This document shows positions 8,707-21,500 of a DNA stretch of 64,000 nucleotides, in pieces. How positions within the stretch are numbered: the stretch's first letter is position 1; each line of letters opens with the position of its first letter. This stretch comes from Psilocybe cubensis. Taxonomy: Eukaryota. The translations under genes and the position numbers were made by a program. The notes beneath the pieces were generated by a model. It did not search any database. It saw only the letters and a program-made list of their open reading frames with translations, and was not told the DNA's origin. Where the stretch lies: contig CM039000.1 of assembly GCA_017499595.2 (NCBI GenBank), positions 1,674,001 through 1,738,000 on the forward strand, written 5' to 3'.

Positions 8707-10152
8707 TTAACGATTCCAGGAAAGCAGCGACATGTCCCCAAGACGTCTATAAAAGATTTGTGAGTCAGGAACCCTTTAACAAGTACAATAAACTAACCTT
8801 GGTTTGATAAGATGACGAGCAGTGCCTAAAATTGCGAGCAGGACGAAAACTGCTGCCGCAGCGACATACGCCCAGCCTAAGAAGGGATTCTTTCCTCCAA
8901 CCCATGATACGGTTGAGATAACAATCGATTTAGTGCCTTTGTAAGGAAGGACAGGGAAATCTGAAAGACATATTAGATGTATGAAGCTGTTTGTTAATGG
9001 AGCATACACACTAAGTCCAACAACTATTTGATATGTACCCTTCTGCATTGTGTCCTTATCATTTCTGCCATAAAGCTTCGTAAATGTAGGAAGACCGGCA
9101 GTTCGCATCCAATTTTGGAAACGCTCATCACTACGCAGATCGGGAGGGGGGTTTTCGTTGGTATAATTATTAGGGAAGCGAAGTTGCCAGTTAGGAGGAG
9201 GGACAATCTCATCAAGGCTAGCATAACCGCCGGGACCAACCGGATTAGTGGTATATTTCTTCGCTTCTCCCGGCCATGCAATACCGCTCGAAGAAAAGTT
9301 ATAGGTTTGCGAAGACTCGGATGAGCCGGAAGGGTTGAGCAACACTGGGTTGGAGAAAGTATCTAATTCAAATATTCTTAGCGTTATATTTGTAATATGT
9401 GTTTAAAACGAGCGAACCGTTGAAGAGAGAGTTTGCAATGAGGCCACACGGGTATATCGCCTTGCCGTCTATAGTAGATAGAGGCTTGCAGTCGCTATTG
9501 TCAAGATCTTTCGGACTGACATATTTGCCCTTCAATTGATTAGAATTGAGGCTCTTCACATATCGACGATGGTTTTGGAAGAAATTGGTGAGTTTATAGT
9601 AAAGCAAAACGGATGGTTCAAGGTCTGCAGGAATTTGGAATTGGATAGCACACTGTTTCTTGTCAGAAAGATCCGTCACGGTGGAGTTGTTGGTATTGTC
9701 AAGAAATGCATAGCGAGGTGCAGCAATATTATTGGATTCCTTGTCATCCTTTGAACGGAGCTGGTAAGAGTATTTATTCGACGGAATATTAACGAAGTTG
9801 AGGGAGTTGTTTGAGGCCGAAGGTGTTTGATTTTCACAGTCGGTGTAGTCAATTGTAATCTCCGTTACAAGGGACGAACCCCAGATGAGAAGGCCGCCAA
9901 TGGGTGCAAATATGATGCCAATAATGAAAAGGGTAGGCAGCACGGTCTTTGGAGTCAAGATAGGTTGCCATGCCTTGAGCCTCTGCTGCTTGAAAGCGGT
10001 GTCTGAACGTGCGTGCGTTGGCAAATAGGTCAGCACAGGTCATAAAGCAACGACGTACTGGCAGGACGTTTCCAGCCGCCTTTTTCCTTCTTGTTCTCCG
10101 AGGAGTCTCCCGAGTCTGAGTCTGGCTTTTTCTTTCTGTTGAAGAGACCCAT
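8707..10152 (-). CDS. CDC50: CDC50/LEM3 family flippase beta-subunit
   Basis: KRPA/NTAFKQQRLKAWQPILTP, TM1, YYKLTNFFQNHRRYVKS, PCGLIANSLFN, FQNWMRTAGLPTFTKLY, GGKNPFLG-TM2, LGDMSLLSWNR*. Confidence 0.93.
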
Positions 10153-11349
10153 TGTGAGGGAGAAGGGGTGAGGAACGGAGTGAAGATGATAAATGCACGG
10201 CAAGCGGCGCGCAGCCGTCACAGTGACTTTTGTTCATCATCCTCATCACGTAAGCCACCGACGACCATGTCTCTCGTCTTCGATGCACTTCAAAGTCCTA
10301 CAGATGCTCTTTGCCAATTGTACGAACAGAATAAATCTCAAGGAATAGACTCCTTTCCTGCCACAGTTACTGCACACTTTAGTTCCATCTTCAAGTCCAA
10401 CGATGCATTCCAGCAGGTGCTTTTGGCATTTAATTATGGCACTCAGCGCGTCTTGTTTTCAATAATTGATAATATCGAAATAGATTCCTATGCTGGATCT
10501 GCATCATCCACCAGAATCTTTTGCGGACAGATCCCTAGTTATTTTCAATGCAATGGTGCAAGATACTTCATTGTCACCCGAGCTTTACCTTGCCACCAGA
10601 AGCAACAACACATGTGGTGGTTGGGGTCTTGTGGACGAAGTTCCATCCAATGATGGTATTCAATACGAAAATCTGAGAGAATGTAGTACATTCTGGGCAG
10701 TCTCTATACCAGGATTAAGCTCGTGGTGCTATGATGAAACCAAGGTACCCCCCTCTTCCCCGTACACCGTAATACAGAAGCACAAGTACCCGGTGCTTGA
10801 TGCACCACATATTGGGGCACAGATCAAGGTTTGGAATACCTGCAATCACTTATATTTGAAAACCTACAACATAATCCATTACTAGGTCTACGATGAGAAG
10901 TTGTCTGCATCATTTCGGGCAACAGACACAGTTTCCTTCATCGGCATTTTAACCTTTGAGCCGTACGTGATTTTCAGAGCAAACCTATGTTAATCGTTGA
11001 TGTACATGAACTAGTCTTTCTGCCAGCATTGACGTACCGAATTCTAAGAATGTCCCGACCATTCATATGTTGTTCTCCCTTCCGATTCCACGCACAATCG
11101 CACCTAGATCTTTTCCCGAAGAGGCCCTCCCTACATCTATTGCAAACTTGCGGAAAGAACTCATTCAATGGATAGCCGATGAAGGACTTGGTGGTGACTA
11201 TGTGGCTGCAGAATGGGTTTTTATATGCGCCATTGCTCGAGTGTAAGCTGACCGTATTTCGGCAATATCTGTTCTAATTCTTCCTACAGGCGGTCGAGGC
11301 GTCCTCCAGTTCTTCCTTTGTCTCTAACAATTGCAGGTTTCCCAGCGCC

Positions 11350-11532
11350 TGTAAGGTTCTCACTGTGGTCTGCAATGCAGCACGAAAGGTAACCTAATAA
11401 CGAAGTTATATAAAGAATGGAGTATGTACCAGTAGTACATACCTAATAACGAAGTGGTCAAAGCTAAAGGATATACTGTATCTACGAAGGAGGATAACAG
11501 CGCGGGATCACGTGTGTGGTCATATCATGACA
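11350..11532 (-). repeat. 3' LTR (183 bp)
   Basis: tgtaaggttct...catatcatgaca, direct repeat of 17183-17365, flanked by TSD GCGCC. Confidence 0.97.
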
Positions 11533-11546
11533 CCACACCCCCTCTT
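11533..11546 (-). other. Polypurine tract (PPT)
   Basis: Minus strand AAGAGGGGGTGTGG lies directly before the 3' LTR. Confidence 0.85.
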
Positions 11547-11686
11547 GAAGACAGAGAAATGAAGAGGAGAAATAGAAAGACAAAAGAAAGCACGAAATAT
11601 CAAAGAAAGAAAGAAACTAAAAATAGATCGAACGGCCGGCACGCCAAAGAAGAGAGGAAGAGAAAAAAAAAGAACCACAGGCCACG

Positions 11687-14600
11687 TCAGCCAACTGTCC
11701 TAGGACGCCCTCGACGACGTCCTTGCAACACCCCTTCCACAGCCCCTCCCTCTGTGTTCACCCGTCGTGAGACTCCCTGTTTGCGCGAAATCTTGACCTT
11801 ACCCCTCGTAGCTTCCTCCCGACGAAACTTTGCCACCAATCTGCGTGCATTTTGCATGCCGTACTCTGGAATCCACTCGTTTTCGCTCTCGTCAAACCCA
11901 AGCCACTTCACCAAAAACTCCACAACACCACCCCTCGTCCGCCGCTCCCTCAGTATGCGCTCAATTTCACGCTCTTCGCCGCCGGGCATTAACACAGGCG
12001 GCGGCGGCAACTGTCGTCTGCCCAGAATGGTGTCCGTACGAGCTGGGATCAAGCACGAGACATGGAAAACATCGTGAATGGCCCAACCAGCAGGCAACTC
12101 CAATCGATATGCAGAATCGGAGACTTTCTGTGCAATACGGAAAGGCCCAAAACGACGAAAATCCAATTTATTGTTAGGGCGCGATGAGCGCAGGTCAGAG
12201 CGTTCCAAGAAGACACGATCACCAGGGATGTAGTCGGGTGCCTCATCCACCCAATCATCGTGAAATTTCTTCATCCTCTCCGCGGTGAGTGTCAGAATTG
12301 CCTGCAGCTCGCCCTGCACCCTGTGGATGCGCTCCAGCCTCTCGTCGGCGCGTGGAACTGATTGCGAATTCACAGGATCCACGGAAAACGATGGGTTATA
12401 GCCGTATTCAGCAAAAAATGGGGACATCCCTATTGCTGTATGGTGTCTGTTGTTGTAGGCAAACTCTGCAAAGGGAAGCCACTGCACCCAGTCGTCCTGG
12501 TAGTAGTCGACGTACGCGCGCAGGTAAATTTCCAATTCCTGATTAACCCTCTCTGTCTGACCATCGGTTTGTGGGTGATTAGCGGATGACATCGCGCGCT
12601 TAATACCCAAACGTTCCCACAAACGTTTTGTGTATTTCGCAATAAATTGTGGCCCCATGTCCGACACAATCTTCTTGGGAGTCCCATGCAAAGACCATAC
12701 CCGGTCTATGAAGGTGTCACACATTTCTACTGCACCATCGGTGGTGTGTGCCGGAAGGAAGTGGGCACGCTTTGTTGACTTGTCACAGACCACCTGAACC
12801 GCGTCGTATCCCTGCGATGGTGGCAGCGGCCCAATGTAATCGGTGGAAATGTGCTGCCAAGGACCTGCAGGCACCTCAAGGGGTTGTAGCTTTCCATAGG
12901 GTTTCTGTCGACGGGGCTTGGTGCGTTGGCAAGTATCACATCCATCAACATACCGAGCAACAAATTCTGACATCCTTGGCCAATAGTAGTTCCGTGACAC
13001 CAGCTCCAGCGTGTTTGAGATACCAGGGTGGCCTGCCGGGATCGCATCGTGATACAGCTGCAAAATCCAACGCTTCAATTCCTCGTCATTGGGCACATAC
13101 ACCAGCCCACGAAACCGCACCACGCCATCATCCACCACAAAGTCCTTCAGCCGACGTTGAACAAGGCCGGGAGCGTTAGGTAAATCCCACATGAGATCCA
13201 ACTTGGGGTCCTTACGAGACACTGTACGTATCCTGTCCATAATCTCCTTGTCGGCACGTATAACTTGCCCCACCCTAGCCACCACCTTGGACATACCACA
13301 ACAACGCAGCTCCAGCACCACACCTCGCTTTCCCAACACCGTACCACCACCACCATCATTGGAATCCTGCCCCAGCCTCTCTGCTGGCAAGATCTCCATA
13401 GCAGCATTGTCACGGGCCATCCCGTGGATGTGGTCAGCACGACGAGACAACTCGTCTGGACCTGCACTCAAACGGCCAGGCCGGTGGTGGATCTTGAAGA
13501 CAAAACGGTTCAAAAAAAGGCTCCACCGCGCCTGTCTGCGATTCAAATCACGAGCTGTCATGAAGAACTCCAGGTTGCGATGATCAGAAAATATATCAAT
13601 ACAGAAGGGGTTGCCCTCCAGGTATGGTCGCCAGACTTCAAGAGCACGCACAACAGCTAACAACTCCTTGTCGTGAACATCATAGTTGCGCTCTGCGGGT
13701 TGCATAGCCTTTGAAAAGTAAGCCACGGGGCGCCAATCACCAGCTGCATCCTTCTGCGACAGGATGGCTCCTACAGCAAAATCTGATGCATCCGTCTCAA
13801 CATGGAATGGCGCCTCCATTTCCGGCAGCATCAATACTGGTGCTTGTATAAATGCTTGCTTCAACTGTGCAAACGCCGCTTGCTCCACATCACCCCACCT
13901 CCAAGCCATGTCTTTCCGCTTCAAATTCTCCAGTGGGCGGGTAATGTTGGCATAGTCTGCAATAAAGCGGCGATAGAAGTTACAGAAGCCAAGGAAGCGA
14001 CTAACATGCCGAACATTGCGTGGCACTGGCCAATCCGTTACCCCGCTGACCTTGACTGGGTCCATGCCAACACAACCAGGTGAGATACGAAATCCCAAAT
14101 AATCCACTTCTGTCGTGCGGAACTGACACTTCTCTGGTTTCAGAAACAGATCTGCTTTCCGAAGGCGACGCAAGACTTCCTTAACCTGTTCGTCGTGTTT
14201 TGAAGGGTCTTGAGAGAAGATAATAATGTCGTCCAGGTAGAGTACCACATTAATGTCGACAAGGTCATGGAATAGATCATTAACCATGCGCTGAAAGGCA
14301 GCCGGAGCATTGCGAAGACCAAACTGCATAACCAAAAATTCAAATTGGCCATAACGGGTCCGGAAAGAAGTCTTCCATTCATCACCTTCCCGTATGCGCA
14401 CATTGTAGTAACCCCATCGCATGTCTAAGGTAGTGAAAACCTTTGCTGCCTTGAGACGGTCTAGGAGTTCAGCGGAGAGAGGAATTGGGTATGCATCGGG
14501 CCGCGTGATGGCATTGAGTGCACGAAAATCCACCACAAGACGGAGAGATCCGTCCTTCTTTTTGACAAAGAAAACAGGAGCTCCACACGGGGCCTTGGAG

Positions 14601-15937
14601 GGCCGTATATAACCCTTCTTGAGGTTGTCATCAATGAATTCCTTCAGTGCCCGAAGCTCTGCTGCTGACATCTGGTATAGCTTGCCAACAGGAGGTGGCA
14701 CATTGCCCTCTAACTCAATCGCCAAATCATGGGGCTTATGGGCCGGAAGCCGTTCGGACCGACCCTTATCAAAGACATCCAAAAATTCGTGAAACTCTGC
14801 AGGCACTAAATCTTCAACTGAGCCAGTAGCTTTTGCAGGAGTTGCAGCCTCTGCCAGGCGCTGTGATACTGAATGACTGGCGGCAGCACGAATACCTGGC
14901 CCCTGGCATCCACGGTGTGATTCTCCATCCCAGCACTGTTCCAAGGACACACCCTCAACCACCCCACCTGCCTCTTCTTGTTGCACTGCATGCTCCAAAG
15001 CTTTTGCAATCTCTGCATGTGCAACACGAAGTGCATCTGCCTGTAGGTCACGTGTCATCTGTGTCCAACTTGCACGCGAACATTTTAAAAAGTGCAGAGA
15101 TTCCCTCCGAATGCGAAGTCGGCCCGTAGCGCCACATGTGTTGGTTTGGCGGCACTGGCTATGCGTGTGAGGTGTCTTACGGCCTGGTTTTTGCCGGACT
15201 GGATGTAACAGCTTCAACCTCTCCACATCATCAGCCTCAACTTCCAACCCAGTACGTCTCGCCTCCCGTGCGTGCTGGCGTGCACGGCGGCGTTGCCTTT
15301 CTAGCAGTCGCTTACGCAGCCTTCCAGGTGAAGGTGAAGCAGCTGCAGCAGTTATGGCCTCCGGCAAAGGTAAGCACCTCTGCCTGCAGTATTCCGAAGT
15401 AAAATCCAAGGTAGAGCGGTCAAAATCTACCACCGGATTGTGTCGCCGTAGCCAGTTAATCCCAAATATAAGGTTGTCATCCCCAATATCAGTAACATCG
15501 CATACTAGCAATTCCGAATGTGAGTCGATGAAAACCTTGAGGTGGACTTCATGAGTGATAAGACCCGACTTGATTTCAGAGTTGTCAATTGTGCGCAAAC
15601 GGAGGCTCCTCTTCTTTGGGATTGAAATTAGGCCATGTTGCTCCACAAAACGTGGATTAATGAAACAGCAGCTAGCGCCCGAATCTAGCATTGCCCTAGT
15701 ATCAATAATGGTAGGCACATTGGGTGTCGCGGTTTTGTGTACATGAATAGTAATTGGAATTTCAAAGGAAGAAAACTGTGATCGAGGAGAACGAGCATGA
15801 ATCACAGCTGCACGGCGGGTCCGACAACGACGGCGGCGAGGCACAGTCTGATTTGGACCAGTCAAAACCAATTTATTTGGAGGCGTAAGTACAGAAAACC
15901 TGTTCTGGGTTGCACTTGCAGCGACAAGGCAAGGCAA
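11687..15937 (-). CDS. pol: Retrotransposon Pol (protease, RT, RNase H, integrase, chromodomain), in the -1 frame relative to gag
   Basis: AMLDSGA protease; PVFFVKKKDGSLRLVVDFRALN and YLDD RT; ETDASD RNase H; H..H/CDTC zinc finger, DDE core and GPF integrase; FLVKWLGF..ENEW chromodomain; 1416 codons without a stop. Confidence 0.97.
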   Translation of the reverse strand: MPCLVAASATQNRFSVLTPPNKLVLTGPNQTVPRRRRCRTRRAAVIHARSPRSQFSSFEIPITIHVHKTATPNVPTIIDTRAMLDSGASCCFINPRFVEQHGLISIPKKRSLRLRTIDNSEIKSGLITHEVHLKVFIDSHSELLVCDVTDIGDDNLIFGINWLRRHNPVVDFDRSTLDFTSEYCRQRCLPLPEAITAAAASPSPGRLRKRLLERQRRRARQHAREARRTGLEVEADDVERLKLLHPVRQKPGRKTPHTHSQCRQTNTCGATGRLRIRRESLHFLKCSRASWTQMTRDLQADALRVAHAEIAKALEHAVQQEEAGGVVEGVSLEQCWDGESHRGCQGPGIRAAASHSVSQRLAEAATPAKATGSVEDLVPAEFHEFLDVFDKGRSERLPAHKPHDLAIELEGNVPPPVGKLYQMSAAELRALKEFIDDNLKKGYIRPSKAPCGAPVFFVKKKDGSLRLVVDFRALNAITRPDAYPIPLSAELLDRLKAAKVFTTLDMRWGYYNVRIREGDEWKTSFRTRYGQFEFLVMQFGLRNAPAAFQRMVNDLFHDLVDINVVLYLDDIIIFSQDPSKHDEQVKEVLRRLRKADLFLKPEKCQFRTTEVDYLGFRISPGCVGMDPVKVSGVTDWPVPRNVRHVSRFLGFCNFYRRFIADYANITRPLENLKRKDMAWRWGDVEQAAFAQLKQAFIQAPVLMLPEMEAPFHVETDASDFAVGAILSQKDAAGDWRPVAYFSKAMQPAERNYDVHDKELLAVVRALEVWRPYLEGNPFCIDIFSDHRNLEFFMTARDLNRRQARWSLFLNRFVFKIHHRPGRLSAGPDELSRRADHIHGMARDNAAMEILPAERLGQDSNDGGGGTVLGKRGVVLELRCCGMSKVVARVGQVIRADKEIMDRIRTVSRKDPKLDLMWDLPNAPGLVQRRLKDFVVDDGVVRFRGLVYVPNDEELKRWILQLYHDAIPAGHPGISNTLELVSRNYYWPRMSEFVARYVDGCDTCQRTKPRRQKPYGKLQPLEVPAGPWQHISTDYIGPLPPSQGYDAVQVVCDKSTKRAHFLPAHTTDGAVEMCDTFIDRVWSLHGTPKKIVSDMGPQFIAKYTKRLWERLGIKRAMSSANHPQTDGQTERVNQELEIYLRAYVDYYQDDWVQWLPFAEFAYNNRHHTAIGMSPFFAEYGYNPSFSVDPVNSQSVPRADERLERIHRVQGELQAILTLTAERMKKFHDDWVDEAPDYIPGDRVFLERSDLRSSRPNNKLDFRRFGPFRIAQKVSDSAYRLELPAGWAIHDVFHVSCLIPARTDTILGRRQLPPPPVLMPGGEEREIERILRERRTRGGVVEFLVKWLGFDESENEWIPEYGMQNARRLVAKFRREEATRGKVKISRKQGVSRRVNTEGGAVEGVLQGRRRGRPRTVG

Positions 15938-15952
15938 CCCTACACAAAACCC
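15907..15952 (-). promoter_or_regulatory. Programmed -1 ribosomal frameshift signal (G GGU UUU + stem-loop)
   Basis: In the gag frame CCG GGT TTT GTG TAG contains an X XXY YYZ heptamer (15946-15952), a 5-nt spacer and a hairpin GGGTTGC-CTTGC...GCAAG-T-GCAACCC; a -1 slip enters the open pol frame. Confidence 0.8.
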
Positions 15953-17094
15953 GGCTCGGGGGCTGCAGGTTCCGCTATGGGTGGCTCGGAGGAAACTGTT
16001 CCCAATCCATGTGCTTCAAGCACCTTTGTGACCTCCTCTAAAAGCCCTGCCCGCAGCCGAGCAACAGTAGATGGACAGTTGGCACGAACATGACCACTCT
16101 CTCCACATCGATAGCATTTCCGAGGTAAGTGCCGGGCCGCATCAACATCCATAGCATTAGGATCACGTGGAGCAGGAGGAAGGGATGCCTGAGCAGGGCG
16201 GGGTTGAACAGCATGAGTTCCTGAAGGTAAAGCTGACCGTGCAATAGCAGGTGTAGGCACTGCAGGACTGCGGTGTGGGTGAGGAGCGTGACGTCGTAGT
16301 TCTGCTGCAATGTCTGCATGTCGTGTTTCGCGACGCAAAAGAATTGCCTGGGCTTCCTCTGCCCCCTTGAAGTCTGAGTGAGCCAGAAGCTGCTTGGTTT
16401 GTAAAGACAAACCAGCCCAGAAACACGCATCCACAAATGTCCCAGTCCTATCTGCTACTGGCAACCGAGCAACCAACTCGCGGAACTCAGTAATGTACTG
16501 GGTATCGGATTTCTGGCCCTGCTTGAAGCCCAAGAGGCGCTGTGTAGCATCGCGTGCCGAGTCACGAGAGCAGAATGTGGCCTTGAATGCTGCCAGATAT
16601 GCATCCCAATTTTCACGGAGTTCGGAATTTCCACCCTCTGCGTCGCCGAGTGTAATGACTGCCGACCACGAGTATGCCTGCCCAGATAGATAAGACTGCG
16701 CCCATAGAATACACTGCGCATCATTGGAAAACTCCTCAAAGTGGCGGTTAACCGATATCTGCTGAACCCACTCCTCCGCTTTCTGTTTGCTTGTCCCATC
16801 AAACACCGTGGCAGGATTAACTTTCGGCATCCGAGAGGGACGAGCACGAGCGGCGCTCACGGCATCAAGTCGTTGCTCGGTTGCCGCCAACGCAGCGCGG
16901 AGTTCCTGGTTCTGCACCTCTAGACGAGAAAAACCCTCTGCCGCCTCCTCCAGGCCTCGCTCCAACTCGGACAACCTGGGTGCAAGCAACACCTCCAAGG
17001 CCGTATAAACCTCCTGCGCAATAGGATTGGTGATCGTGGGGGGTGGCGGCGGATGCTCGCCCTCTCCTATCGTAGTGGAATTCCCATCCGGCAT
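15940..17094 (-). CDS. gag: Retrotransposon Gag
   Basis: Coiled-coil N-terminus, capsid-like region (PATVFDG..W..SYLSGQAYSW..FKATF..QGQKSDTQYITEF), PNAMDVD motif and CCHC knuckle CYRCGESGHVRANC; likely ATG at 17094, TAG at 15940. Confidence 0.92.
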   Translation of the reverse strand: MPDGNSTTIGEGEHPPPPPTITNPIAQEVYTALEVLLAPRLSELERGLEEAAEGFSRLEVQNQELRAALAATEQRLDAVSAARARPSRMPKVNPATVFDGTSKQKAEEWVQQISVNRHFEEFSNDAQCILWAQSYLSGQAYSWSAVITLGDAEGGNSELRENWDAYLAAFKATFCSRDSARDATQRLLGFKQGQKSDTQYITEFRELVARLPVADRTGTFVDACFWAGLSLQTKQLLAHSDFKGAEEAQAILLRRETRHADIAAELRRHAPHPHRSPAVPTPAIARSALPSGTHAVQPRPAQASLPPAPRDPNAMDVDAARHLPRKCYRCGESGHVRANCPSTVARLRAGLLEEVTKVLEAHGLGTVSSEPPIAEPAAPEPGFV

Positions 17095-17169
17095 GCTGGA
17101 AAGAAGCCCCAAAGGCGCAAATGCCGAAAAAAAAAATTTCTCCGGAAGGAAACGGGTTGAACGTATAAG

Positions 17170-17180
17170 AGCTTTGACCA
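17170..17180 (-). other. Primer-binding site, self-priming type
   Basis: Minus strand TGGTCAAAGCT starts 2 nt after the 5' LTR and is exactly complementary to AGCTTTGACCA within the LTR (minus strand of 17288-17298). Confidence 0.8.
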
Positions 17181-17182
17181 AG

Positions 17183-17365
17183 TGTAAGGTTCTCACTGTG
17201 GTCTGCAATGCAGCACGAAAGGTAACCTAATAACGAAGTTATATAAAGAATGGAGTATGTACCAGTAGTACATACCTAATAACGAAGTGGTCAAAGCTAA
17301 AGGATATACTGTATCTACGAAGGAGGATAACAGCGCGGGATCACGTGTGTGGTCATATCATGACA
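17183..17365 (-). repeat. 5' LTR (183 bp)
   Basis: Identical copy of 11350-11532, followed by TSD GCGCC at 17366-17370. Confidence 0.97.
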
Positions 17366-18512
17366 GCGCCCCCAGACAATTTAGAAGCAAAACCGACTTT
17401 ATATCATGTTCTATCGCATATATTTCCTCTCGTGTCCATCCTGCCGCTCACTCTCAATACATTAAATAACACTCCCTTTTATCCTGAGTCCATAGATGAA
17501 GATTTGCACAGTGGTCATCTACAATTACCGAAAGGGACTGTTCTTGTCCTTGCCGAAGGTGCAGTCACTGAAGGAGACATTTTCAATAAAGGCATGTATC
17601 TTTTTTTATTGAAAACCGAATATGGAGTAATATATTTCTTACTCAGGTGTGATGAACATACGCGCAACTCAAGACATGATGTCGGAACAAAATCTGCAAT
17701 ACGTCTTTCCATTCAGTAGCTTCCAATTTGAAACAGAAGTAAACTTTCTCGTTACAACAGAGGGGAGAAAAAGTACATTTTTCAAGGTAATCTTTGAATT
17801 TATCGGAACGTCTTGAATCGAAACATGAATTCCCGCTTTCAGACGGATATTGTTGTTCCTCTTCGGCCTATGGTTTCCGAAGCCAATGATATCAAACATA
17901 GGCTTTACAATGCAGCAGACACTATACGACTTCCGCCTGCTGATAAACTCTTACAATTCCGCCAATTGGCAGGAGGTTCAATGATTGGAAATGTCGCTGT
18001 TGCCGACGTGTTAGGAAAGGCACGTCTTTCTCTGAATAGAACTGAAGACATACATTGTTGAGCGCAGACTTTAGCATGTCGAAGAAGATTTCATTCGAGA
18101 ACGGTCCTCCGAGGGAAACAATGGAGCGAAGACAAATAAAACCACCTTTTCCCCCGATGATCTCATATCGCGAATGCTAATTGCAAGGTAAGTTTCTAAT
18201 ATTGAATAGACTTGCGTTAAGACATTTGTGCTTTAGATTAATTGCTTTGTCATTGCACCAAACTGAAGTCAATCTAGAAAGTTGGGAAAGCGCAAAGACT
18301 CTCGAAGCGCAGACAAGAAGTAGAGTTTAAATCAGCAGGTGTACGCAAAAGAGTCAAGTACAATAAAATTGGCAGGCATTTAGTAAAGTACAAAATATGT
18401 TTTGATAAGAATAATATGTGCATCATATAAAGAATAGAGCTGAGTACTGAGTTAGCGTCACGTTGAAGACAAAAGGCAGGACAACTTTAGTGCAGAGTAT
18501 ATGTGTGGAATA

Positions 18513-21500
18513 TCAAACTGCCGGCTTGAACTTTGATTTGCTTCTCTGCAAGGGCAAGGCCGGTGCTGCCACATTGGAACTTGGGCCAGCTGGTGGTCGA
18601 TATTCATATTTGGATGTAAGGGATGCAGGGCTATCCACAGGCTTGAATTTACTATGTGGTAAAAAGGTTTTTTCCGTTAGCTACGTCCGACAATAAAGGG
18701 ATTAACTGATTCGATACCTATGCAACATCTTGTTCTGATTGATACACAATTCAAGGAATCGTTGGCCGTGGCTATACCATTTATTCTCAATATATTGGGA
18801 AAGTCTAGGTTCAGGCAAGTCCACGCAATTGGCTAACTCGATTTTGAATGAATGATAATCTAGAGATATAATTAGCCTGGAAGATCTTTTTGAATGAAGA
18901 AGGAACACTTTTACCAGATGGACAAACAGCACTCAGGTTTTGTAAAACGTGGTCAGGGAACACTTCGTCTGGAAGCTGAAGATTCTCTGACAGCATGATC
19001 TGCGGCGGAGAAGTATAAAACAAACACTCAAATGATCGAACAATTGTATGCAAACGTACCTCTTTCCGTAGGTCCAACATTTTGGTGTACAAGACTTCCA
19101 CTGGGTCAGTAGTGGAGCGTCTCAGAGGCTTGGTTATTACAGAAGTGTTCACTGTGATGTCAGAGACAACAGGGAGAGAGGTACATGATTTAATGGGGCC
19201 AGCAGAATACGGAGAGTGTGCTTCAGTGACAGGATCATCCATATCGTACATGTCATCCGAAAGCTCAATTGGATCGTCTTCAACTTCGGCCTTCTTCTTT
19301 CCTCTACGTGACTTTGGCGCAGTGCTCACAGAGTCGCCACCCCCCACCGCTTTCTTCCGCTGCTTCGGCTCCTTTTCCGGTTTGGGATGCCAATCCAGAA
19401 CAATTTTTATTTGGCCGTTAAGCAGAGATGATGCTTGTGGTCCTAACTGTATACATAATCCATTTAGAACAGGCTTCAGGGGTGTAAAACAAACTTACCT
19501 CAAGGTAATCAACGTGGAACCCATGATTCTTGAGCACAGAGTTGTAGGAGATCATTTCCAGGAAAATGAGTCGATTGAACATAAGTTCAATCAGTTCGAT
19601 TGGAACTTTGGATAGCGATCCATAATAGGGATTTTTTTCGAACCGCATCTTGACATCAGAAGCACCCGAACCACGCATAACCTGCAGGAGTTGAGGCTGA
19701 GTTATTTGGTCACCGTGGTTAAGAACATGTTGAATGAGGTTAAGTGCAGCCTGAGCATGTTTAGTGACATCCTCTTTTACTAATCTCCCTGAATCTGATT
19801 GACAGTTGTCGCAACCACGATTGCAATTTCTTGGGGCGAATTTTTCGTCGAAATGCTGCAGAATTTGAACTCTGCGACATTCAGAGATGTTTGCACAGAA
19901 TTTATAGACTTCCCTGACCCCTTCAATTTGCCGCCGCTTACTGTCAGGTGTTGAGTCTTCGGTTTTTCTAATCTGGTCGATGAGCCTGCACAAATCTTTG
20001 CCGGAATAGACTAGCATCAGATTAATGATCAATGTGTGTAACTGAGGCTTCATGTATTGCAACCTACGCGTCAGACAATCAGCGGCTTTGCCATCCCGAC
20101 CCGCCCGTCCAGTTTCTTGATAATATCTAGGTAAACATTAGAATTGTCTCTGGAGTCAAAAATCACTATCCTTCTGGATTCTTACCCTGACAAAGATTTG
20201 GGCATATCATGATGGATAACAAAGCGAACTGCATCAGGACTTGATTAGTAGCAGACACAATGAAAAATAAATTGACAATACCATCAGCTTTATCGATGCC
20301 CATGCCAAAAGCAATCTTAACTAAGTTAGCGGGTGAAGCAAATTACAGTAGTAATAACACTTACTGTTGCAACAATGACTAATGTTCTATCATTCTGCCA
20401 ATCTTGGGCTGCCTGCTCTTTGTTCTGAGGGGACATCCCTGCGTGAAAATACGATGCTTTGATGCCTTTCTCACATAGTTTGGCTGCAACTTTCTCGCAA
20501 CTATTTCGAGACAGGCAGTAAATAACACCGGTGTGCCCTTTGTGGTATGTATTAATGAACGTGATAATGTCGGTTAAAGGATTCTTCTTCAGTCGCACAG
20601 TGTAGGTAAGATTTGGTCTGTTAAAAGATTGAATAAATGTAGCCTCATTTTTCATGCCGAGTTGTGCAACGATGTCCTTGACGGTCCGCTTGTTAGCTGT
20701 AGCAGTGAGAGCCATGATGGGCACATTGCTGTATTCCTTGCGCAACTTTCCTAGACGGGTATACTGGGGGAAAGTTCAGCAACAGTATTAAGGACAACAT
20801 TTTGCACTAACCGCTTCCCGGAAGTCTTGACCCCATGTTGAAATACAATGAGCTTCGTCGATAACAAATCTTGCCAAGTTACCCTGGTTATAAAGCGCTG
20901 TAAGAATCTTGTCTACAGAACTGCTTGCATCCAGTTTTTCCGGAGTGATATACCATAGGTTAGGTTTCGACTCGGCCCTAACCAGATGCTGCCAGTCATC
21001 ACCTGAATTGTCGGAACTCGATAAACGTGCGTCTATCCTTTTCTTGGACAAACTATCCACTTGATCCTTCATCAACGCCACCAATGGGGATATAACGACT
21101 GTGACACCTTTTGTCCTTCCGTTTGTGCACACAGCTGGCAATTGAAAGCAAAGACTTTTCCCTCCGCCAGTTGGCATTAGGACGAAAACATCTCTCCCCT
21201 CGAGGGCTGCCGTAATAGCCTCAAGTTGATTATTTCGAAAATTTGTGAGTTTGAAAACGTGTCTGAGTTTGTGCATGATTTCCGCATAGAAAGGACTCGA
21301 CGAGATTTCGTCGTTACTCGTGTTAGCAGAATGTGAGAAATCTGGTATGATGTGCGAGAGGTCGTCCATTCCTTTCCAGAGTTCATCATCCTCATCCTCT
21401 ACCTGTCTTCCTTTAGGAGGAGAAACACGGGAAACGACGTCCATGACGGCATGTGGGGTAGTATGCTGGTTAGATGAGTTAATGAGATTCCCTGTGGATG

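Follow-up and report, generated by a model that had tools for sequence, protein, structure and literature searches.

How did an intact retrotransposon come to lie within a coding exon of MCMBP in Psilocybe cubensis, and does the broken allele represent the species or a single haplotype? We addressed this question in the window, i.e., the whole analysed stretch of 64,000 nucleotides, in which a Ty3/gypsy chromovirus of 6,016 bp (11350-17365, minus strand) lies antisense to MCMBP. The MCMBP gene runs from its ATG at 10267 to its stop codon at 18330 on the plus strand, and its exon 5 is split by the element. A preliminary description of this DNA had given 10267-18330 for the insertion and its host gene together; these coordinates hold for the host gene from ATG to stop, whereas the element occupies only the interval given above. 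The parts of the host gene are as follows.

10267-11349, plus strand: MCMBP 5' half, codons 1-287, comprising exons 1-4 plus 60 nt at the start of exon 5; collinear with P0004
10267-10414, 10482-10826, 10884-10962, 11015-11242 and 11290-11349, plus strand: 5' exons, the introns being GT..AG joints in an RNA contig of run X8
17371-18330, plus strand: MCMBP 3' half, codons 288-534, comprising the remainder of exon 5 and exons 6-9; best fit to P0004
17371-17591, 17647-17786, 17843-18019, 18075-18187 and 18237-18330, plus strand: 3' exons

P0004 is the P. cyanescens orthologue, named by its source as mini-chromosome maintenance complex-binding protein, and the 3' exon model was picked by best fit to it. 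Two introns have GC donors (17592 and 18020), and the X8 RNA contig picks up again at 18235, at the 3' end of the gene. When 11350-17370 was deleted in silico, the reading frame was restored as ...GFPAP/PDNLEAKPTL (the slash marks the insertion point), where the P. cyanescens protein reads ...GFPPPPDNLETQPAL. The resulting empty gene encodes 534 aa, as compared with 532 aa in P0004, and the two proteins are collinear with one 2-aa indel and 392/534 identical residues. Pieces of the MCM_bind profile (PF09739) were matched in order (profile positions 14-111, 249-322, 352-420, 418-459 and 547-577), and two exon pieces scored 43.5 and 27.8 bits, over the 25.6-bit cut-off of the profile. Apart from the insertion, no stop or frameshift was found across all ten exon intervals. 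The preliminary description had claimed that removal of the element restores the frame and that both halves look undecayed, and both points were reproduced; the gene was not dead before the insertion.

In the occupied allele, in-silico translation reads 287 MCMBP codons and 13 LTR codons before a stop. Since the element is antisense to MCMBP, the transcript would pass into the LTR after codon 287; with the C-terminal 247 residues thereby lost, the allele is likely null. In human MCMBP, the binding of MCM3 is described as requiring the middle and C-terminal regions of the protein (PMC9018068), and a role in MCM binding and replication licensing is documented only for the human and Schizosaccharomyces pombe proteins (PMC9018068, PMC3335088). 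P0003, a publicly available protein model that ends one residue beyond exon 4, is identical to the 5' part of the gene at 267/267 residues. This P. cubensis MCMBP model is a stump of 267 aa, probably due to the insertion, so that absence or truncation in the annotation would describe one allele and not the species. Note that the occupied allele is represented by the window and P0003, and P0003 may derive from the same assembly and is therefore not independent support.

The element itself, with the host duplication on either side, contains the following features.

11345-11349, no strand: target-site duplication, left copy, GCGCC
11350-11532, minus strand: 3' LTR (element orientation), 183 bp with TG..CA ends, 183/183 identical to the other LTR
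11533-11546, minus strand: putative polypurine tract AAGAGGGGGTGTGG, adjoining the 3' LTR
11687-16015, minus strand: pol open frame, 1,442 codons with one terminal stop, from the ORF and Pfam
15940-17226, minus strand: gag open frame, one terminal stop
15940-17094, minus strand: gag, 384 aa from the ATG at 17094, with Pfam matches to Ty3 capsid / Retrotrans_gag and a CCHC zinc knuckle
15946-15952, minus strand: slippery heptamer GGGTTTT, 3 nt ahead of the gag stop codon
17169-17180, minus strand: primer-binding-site-like TGGTCAAAGCTC, a TGG-initiated 12-mer 2 nt inside of the 5' LTR
17183-17365, minus strand: 5' LTR (element orientation), 183 bp, identical to the 3' LTR
17366-17370, no strand: target-site duplication, right copy, GCGCC

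The two LTRs are thus direct repeats, and it is, judged from the sequence, no product of chance that a complete gag-pol lies between identical TG...CA repeats with a 5-bp duplication exactly at their outer ends. The identical LTRs, the GCGCC duplication and the stop-free gag and pol named in the preliminary description were all found, and its placing of the intact element, a chromovirus, within a coding exon was likewise reproduced. No tRNA gene was found within the window. The pol frame is -1 relative to the gag frame by ORF comparison, and gag-pol expression would presumably involve -1 frameshifting at GGGTTTT; a 12-bp hairpin is predicted to begin 5 nt downstream of the heptamer, with a whole-stretch z of -1.2, which is not significant. 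The separate gag and pol frames set the element apart from Tf1, in which there is one frame only and priming is by the element itself.

The gag protein matched Ty3_capsid (8e-9), Retrotrans_gag (8e-9) and zf-CCHC (9e-6). The pol protein showed the Pfam order PR-RT-RNaseH-IN (residues 106-206, 484-644, 707-838 and 977-1324), with the protease DSG at residue 111, the RT YLDD at 593 and the integrase zinc-binding motif. The integrase parts comprise the zinc-binding domain, the core, SH3_Tf2-1 and then a C-terminal chromodomain (PF00385, residues 1350-1399, 4e-10), which also matched solved chromodomains of CDY1, CDYL, HP1 and Chp1 (best E = 3e-9). In the CDY1/CDYL alignments, it has Arg, W and F at what we take to be the three positions of the aromatic cage for methyl-lysine, Arg standing at the first (F/Y) and W and F at the other two.

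Fungal chromoviruses, which include the Tcn1-like clades and MAGGY, share with the element the TG..CA ends, CCHC gag, PR-RT-RH-IN order and C-terminal integrase chromodomain. The closest database proteins were Agaricomycete Ty3/gypsy polyproteins; no protein more than 79% identical to the element was found in 5.8 billion clusters, and the element therefore constitutes its own low-copy family. Some relatives carry the source name 'Tf2 155 kDa protein'. One match, P0032, is named by its source after S. pombe Tf2 and shows 42% identity across 83% of the query; the element also contains an SH3_Tf2-1 domain. The position of the present copy is different from what is described for these relatives. 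Tf1 and Tf2 are reported from the promoters of genes transcribed by RNA polymerase II (PMC4600332), not from exons, and chromodomains are reported as steering integration into heterochromatin (PMC2864245, citing Gao et al. 2008), whereas this copy lies in a coding exon within gene-dense housekeeping DNA.

The window was compared with four of the 14 listed public runs (X1, X8, X10 and X13), all from the same species; the share of sampled window words in the listed runs was 0.99 at best, and none reached 100%. What is new is that the empty-site joint 11342>17364, which skips 6,021 bp, was present in all four runs, exactly as the preliminary description had predicted its sequence, and that the occupied host-LTR junction was absent from all four, including X1, a possible source of the window DNA. 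Specifically, the empty site lay on one DNA contig of 100,794 nt in X1 and on one contig of 73,720 nt in X10, was crossed by 19 raw reads in X13 (flank depth about 22-38), and was spanned in X8 (RNA) by one spliced MCMBP contig. Given the empty site in all four of these read sets, the insertion is rare and new; it belongs to the assembled haplotype alone and does not characterise the species.

The element was found elsewhere in three of these runs. An X1 copy showed 0 differences from the window copy over 5,863 bp and lay beside another flank; just four X1 contigs fell on the stretch and none joined MCMBP to the LTR. The word depth of the element in X1 (50) is already equalled by that of the other-locus junction (56), word depths not being copy numbers. 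No difference was found in the listed X8 pieces of element RNA either, and the LTR was joined to yet another flank in a fourth contig of that run. X13 has diverged copies beside a minimum of two other flanks, and a 5-bp duplication, CAACG, is seen at one pair. X10 lacked the element, with a depth of 0 in 17 of 18 bins from 11606 to 17023 and a 32-nt match (13965-13996) as the exception. In all, the window and runs X1, X8 and X13 show five different element flanks, two of them in X13, and the presence of identical (X1, X8) or diverged (X13) copies beside other flanks points to a low-copy family that is polymorphic and has recently been mobile. Other isolates express normally spliced MCMBP mRNA, and in them the element either sits elsewhere or is missing.

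These comparisons could also be read as an assembly artefact, in which the element belongs at another locus and was misplaced into MCMBP by the assembler or a chimeric read. The occupied junction is missing from all four runs, X1 has a contig of 100.8 kb with the empty site as well as an identical element beside another flank, and the word share stays below 1.00 in all listed runs. We nevertheless consider such a misplacement very unlikely, since a misjoin would not give a perfect 5-bp host duplication at the TG/CA ends of two complete LTRs, and the habit of 5-bp duplication recurs at the other locus in X13. Furthermore, X1 is not the window haplotype: it differs from the window at 9807 and 10220, the window T at 9807 was seen in none of the four runs, and the flank of the X1 element has no match within the window.

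Host flanks vary between strains at 2-4 sites per about 3 kb, whereas the element is identical in the window, X1 and X8, and the element therefore spread after the host haplotypes diverged. The earlier statement that the element is very recent is borne out by the identical LTRs, the identity with the X1 copy at another locus and the absence of the insertion from all four runs. This is sequence-level evidence of very recent autonomous LTR retrotransposon movement within P. cubensis lineages, and it bears on strain stability in a species that is nowadays cultivated to supply clinical material. The event is of an ordinary kind. An autonomous Ty3/gypsy chromovirus would lately have integrated into exon 5 in the canonical manner, a 5-bp staggered cut giving the GCGCC duplication around LTR ends TG..CA. 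In a long-read reference of P. cubensis, an insertion of 4.6 kb is described at the gene for the psilocybin N-methyltransferase (PMC8220353), likewise kilobase-scale, strain-specific and at a gene, and likened here by size and setting only.

We regard as probable the reading that this is a private, recent chromovirus insertion in exon 5 of the sole MCMBP gene seen within the window, the broken allele being either sheltered or culture-born. The allele may be kept because the other nucleus of a dikaryon supplies an intact copy, or it may have arisen in a vegetatively propagated culture. Sheltering in a dikaryon is plausible: for the long-read reference, 15,674 heterozygous variants are given among 15,963 self-mapped ones, 'in a diploid organism' (PMC8220353). 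As with known sheltered recessive alleles in dikaryons and heterokaryons, we have here a likely null of a conserved replication gene and two haplotypes reported in cultivated material (PMC8220353), but in this case sheltering is an inference. If the source is dikaryotic, the locus would be a ready test of MCMBP essentiality in a mushroom-forming fungus. A more specific version, in which the insertion is real but subclonal, born in vegetative culture, present in part of the nuclei and kept by the assembler by chance, would fit its restriction to the window, the private base at 9807, and the identity of copies over the stretches covered in X1 and X8, as expected from transposition in recent cultivation history; assemblers, however, usually retain the majority path, and we judge this version unlikely.

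It is more doubtful still that the insertion persists with no intact partner, whether MCMBP is dispensable, as the preliminary description had suggested for this lineage, the N-terminal fragment of 287 residues is enough, or splicing of the pre-mRNA takes the element out. MCMBP is described as missing from budding yeast, with loss phenotypes that differ among species (PMC9018068). On the other hand, mcb1 is reported as essential in S. pombe (PMC3335088), as stated in the preliminary description, and a database search matched MCMBP in nine Agaricales species, in eight of which it is full length (521-550 aa). X8 expresses and splices MCMBP, and the two coding differences among strains (P230 and Y324) are both synonymous; dispensability is thus weakened. 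As for removal, a purely hypothetical plus-strand GT at 11337 and an AG ending at 17366 would excise 6,030 nt in frame with the loss of three codons. However, every intron seen is 47-91 nt as against the 6 kb required, and the obvious donor GTAAGG at 11351, at the LTR edge, is out of frame with either nearby AG.

The preliminary description had called the element probably active; its differing sites with identical copies agree with this. The sole element RNA seen was an antisense, non-coding RNA (no long ORF) in X8, from which nine canonical introns are spliced out; the sense genomic RNA on which an active element depends was therefore not directly observed. Sense full-length RNA was absent from X8, weak evidence from one run whose contigs drop rare forms. 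A tentative and rather unlikely idea is that the family is transposing now in cultivated P. cubensis, that full-length antisense spliced RNA makes up most of its RNA output and brakes the element by pairing or by spliceosome-linked small-RNA silencing, and that the MCMBP insertion is one of the rare escapes when this control lapses. Projected on the window, the antisense RNA, which stems from an element copy at another locus, has these parts.

11454-17212, plus strand: antisense spliced RNA of X8, 5,190 nt without its nine introns
12284-12374, 12522-12580, 12928-12985, 13224-13278 and 13620-13683, plus strand: introns 1-5, canonical X8 joints
14077-14140, 14235-14295, 15520-15579 and 15710-15766, plus strand: introns 6-9, canonical X8 joints

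In the intron bins of this RNA, the depth was exactly as expected from zero unspliced cover.

A direct-repeat search of the window found a single pair of repeats, at 11350 and 17183, which are the LTRs of a Ty3/gypsy chromovirus that splits exon 5 of the plus-strand MCMBP gene (10267-18330) and is itself coded on the minus strand.

Structural features of the element (window positions)
11350-11532 and 17183-17365: LTRs, 183 bp each, identical at 183/183 positions by script comparison, TG at the start and CA at the end
11345-11349 and 17366-17370: target-site duplication (TSD) GCGCC, directly outside the LTRs
17226 to 15940, minus strand: open gag frame, ATG at 17094, 384 aa
16015 to 11687, minus strand: open pol frame, 1,442 codons

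The identical LTRs, the TSD and the open gag and pol, on which the preliminary description of an intact chromovirus in an MCMBP coding exon was based, were thus reproduced. Pfam searches identified Ty3_capsid/Retrotrans_gag and a CCHC knuckle in gag and, in pol, aspartic protease, RVT_1, RNase H, the integrase zinc-binding domain, the integrase core, SH3_Tf2-1 and Chromo in that order, and the motifs DSG and YLDD and the zinc-binding motif were found. The pol frame is shifted by -1 with respect to gag and overlaps it by 76 nt, and a GGGTTTT heptamer 3 nt upstream of the gag stop is followed 5 nt further on by a 12-bp hairpin, from which we infer possible -1 gag-pol frameshifting at the heptamer; despite the hairpin, the whole stretch folded no better than its shuffles (z = -1.2). 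A polypurine tract directly adjoins the 3' LTR, and a TGG-initiated 12-mer located 2 nt inside the 5' LTR is a candidate primer-binding site; no tRNA gene was found in the window. With both LTRs and the gag and pol domains present, the 6,016-bp element has the structure that defines a chromovirus and is complete and apparently autonomous.

We next characterized the interrupted gene. Matches to the Pfam profile MCM_bind were collinear on both sides of the element (profile positions 14-111 and 249-322 before it, and 352-420, 418-459 and 547-577 after it), with two exon pieces scoring over the curated cut-off, and tblastn of P0004, the 532-aa P. cyanescens orthologue, against the window matched residues 1-532 consecutively, part of them before and the rest after the element. 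An empty-allele model was built from the RNA joints of X8, a public RNA run, for the first four introns, from deletion of 11350-17370, and from the downstream introns that best fitted P0004. The model has ten exons and 534 aa. Relative to P0004 there are 392/534 identities and a single 2-aa indel, and neither a stop nor a frameshift was found in the model, in agreement with the earlier reading that removal of the element restores the frame of an undecayed gene. Two of its nine introns appear to have GC donors, with boundaries implied by the P. cyanescens protein.

GC-donor introns of MCMBP (window positions)
17592-17646, plus strand: intron starting GCATGT
18020-18074, plus strand: intron starting GCACGT

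To compare the site among samples, we used 14 public runs, comprising 12 runs with part of the stretch (four studies) and two raw-read runs with the same species label. None of the 12 runs reached a word share of 1.00, and the share of X10 and X11 (0.24) equals the host-only fraction of the query. Four of the 14 runs (X1, X8, X10 and X13) were compared over 9800-18800. All four carried the joint 11342>17364; the 6,021 bp in between are skipped, and the resulting sequence is the empty site that had been predicted. Seven letters are ambiguous at the joint, namely the TSD plus CA common to the LTR end and the host. The occupied junction was seen in 0/4 runs, so that it was found nowhere outside the window. 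A 100,794-nt contig of X1 contains the empty site, and none of the only four contigs of this run on the stretch contains an MCMBP-LTR junction. In X10, it lies on a 73,720-nt contig; between 11606 and 17023, depth was zero in 17 of 18 bins, and the remaining bin had a 32-nt match at 13965-13996. In the raw reads of X13, 19 reads cross the empty site where flank depth is about 22-38, which is the count expected of an all-empty sample. X8, which was not recorded as an RNA run, proved to be RNA by its spliced contigs. One of them lacks four host introns, all GT..AG, and reads across the empty site as far as the 3' end, indicating that uninterrupted MCMBP is transcribed and spliced as modelled.

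Host flanks differed among samples at 2-4 sites per about 3 kb, and the MCMBP coding differences were two, both synonymous. The window has T at 9807, in a minus-strand CDC50-family exon, where all four runs have C, and this private base indicates that the window haplotype matches none of the four. X1 was flagged as a possible source of the window DNA, yet it does not have the window's haplotype.

The element itself was present at other loci in X1, X8 and X13. The X1 copy shows 0 differences from that of the window over 5,863 bp but its flank differs from the window's, and the window, X1 and X8 elements did not differ over the stretches covered. The X13 copies differ from the window's by many fixed differences and two 1-nt indels, and adjoin at least two other left and at least two other right flanks. 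One X13 left/right flank pair has CAACG in common, which together with GCGCC indicates that a 5-bp duplication is habitual for the family. The element flanks of X1, X8 and X13 were sought in the window and were absent, and neither additional copies nor solo LTRs were found there. Note that in X13 the LTR bins were deeper than the internal bins, and that loose ends at 11532/11533 and 17181/17182 show this run to have, at two or more further loci, either solo LTRs or diverged copies.

An assembly misjoin that placed the element in MCMBP would also be consistent with the occupied junction being confined to the window; we regard this as very improbable because of the TSD, and the insertion bears every mark of a real integration, unlike an assembler product. 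The insertion is recent because the LTRs are identical, a weak clock by itself at 183 bp, because an identical 5.9-kb copy occupies another locus in another sample, and because the site is empty in 4/4 other samples, with the element elsewhere in each carrier. The insertion is private and very recent, and it has put a mobile chromovirus into a gene that is conserved, expressed and otherwise sound. The earlier observation was confirmed and its interpretation partly supported; the event, a private polymorphism, is ordinary in kind. A pol protein search gave 3,024 matches, none of them a near-identical annotated copy, and the family appears low-copy because one or two flanks were found per sample and no database protein exceeded 79% identity. 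No description of the element or of a transposon insertion in MCMBP was present in the titles and abstract openings of the literature searched. The insertion is useful as evidence for current transposon activity in P. cubensis.

The element chromodomain (11798-11947, minus strand, pol residues 1350-1399) matches the solved H3K9me-reader chromodomains of CDY1, CDYL, HP1 and Chp1 with E down to 3e-9. In alignments to CDY1/CDYL, it has Arg at the presumed first aromatic-cage position, and W and F at what are presumably the other two; the Arg might loosen targeting. The neighbourhood is gene-dense housekeeping DNA (class II tRNA synthetase, RNA 3'-phosphate cyclase, CDC50, RecQ, ATP synthase, GalT and PGK), and further retroelement frames were not seen in the window. 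Chromodomains are reported to steer integration into heterochromatin, in a passage of PMC2864245 citing Gao et al. 2008, and S. pombe Tf elements are described in PMC4600332 as sitting in promoters; relative to these statements, an exon insertion in gene-dense DNA is off-pattern. However, one unselected new insertion is no basis for an integration preference.

The insertion point follows MCMBP coding nucleotide 860, in codon 287, and the occupied allele would continue for 13 LTR-encoded residues and then stop. Very probably this allele is null: according to PMC9018068, human MCMBP requires its middle and C-terminal parts for MCM3 binding, and PMC3335088 gives S. pombe mcb1 as essential. The absence of the gene from budding yeast, also mentioned in PMC9018068, counts against this reading. 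Removal of the element by splicing was considered; GT 11351 does not keep the frame with AG 17366 or with AG 17375 and was rejected, and the pair 11337/17366 is a hypothetical in-frame candidate. Sheltering by a second nucleus would be the most economical reason for survival of the occupied allele, and it fits the heterozygosity reported in a passage of PMC8220353, where 98.2% of self-mapped variants of a long-read P. cubensis reference are heterozygous, "in a diploid organism".

A protein search with exon 2 gave nine matches, the top one being P0003, a public 267-aa P. cubensis MCMBP model that is identical to the window at 267/267 residues and terminates one residue beyond exon 4. Full-length orthologues from eight other Agaricales, 521-550 aa long, make up the rest and include P0004. 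The truncation of P0003 most likely results from the element insertion, and caution is needed with this gene model. The C-terminal half of MCMBP searched against longer proteins gave four matches and none from P. cubensis, so that neither a full-length nor a C-terminal model of this species turned up, a weak result as P0004 was missed too. P0003 (10267-11246) runs one codon into intron 4 before stopping.

X8 also yielded element RNA, from a copy at another locus than the window's. A single contig, of 5,190 nt and with a word depth of 97.9, covers the element (11454-17212, plus strand). It lacks nine short segments of 55-91 nt with the signals of canonical introns: on the plus strand, eight are bounded by GT..AG and the ninth by GC..AG if shifted by one base. 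Several contain CTRAY-like branch motifs. These plus-strand splice signals indicate that the RNA is antisense to gag-pol. Depth in the intron bins is exactly that without unspliced cover (e.g., 68.3 = 97.9 x 210/301), and no such cover was seen in them, although contigs cannot demonstrate the absence of rare sense RNA. An antisense gene was rejected because the 5,190-nt RNA has no long frame: the longest, which is open where the contig starts, has 207 codons, and the next has 135. A loose intron pattern occurred 14 times on the plus and 9 times on the minus strand, compared with 10.8±2.7 and 13.5±3.0 in shuffles, of which 49/300 reached 14 (plus) and 25/300 fell to 9 or fewer (minus). Intron-like motifs were therefore not enriched over shuffles and no selection need be invoked, the test being crude in that the pattern recovers only 3/9 real introns. 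Another X8 contig leads from a host flank into the 3' LTR, which it enters at the outer end, consistent with read-in transcription driven by a nearby promoter at the X8 locus. The titles and abstract openings searched contained no description of spliced antisense RNAs from mushroom LTR elements.

The source of the Flammula and Gymnopilus MCMBP orthologues calls them "alanine racemase-domain-containing", although MCM_bind is the only domain present in them. The CDC50-family gene (minus) and MCMBP (plus) are divergent neighbours (10040-10266), and since their RNA contigs end at 10229 (CDC50) and start at 10277 (MCMBP), any common promoter region must be very short.
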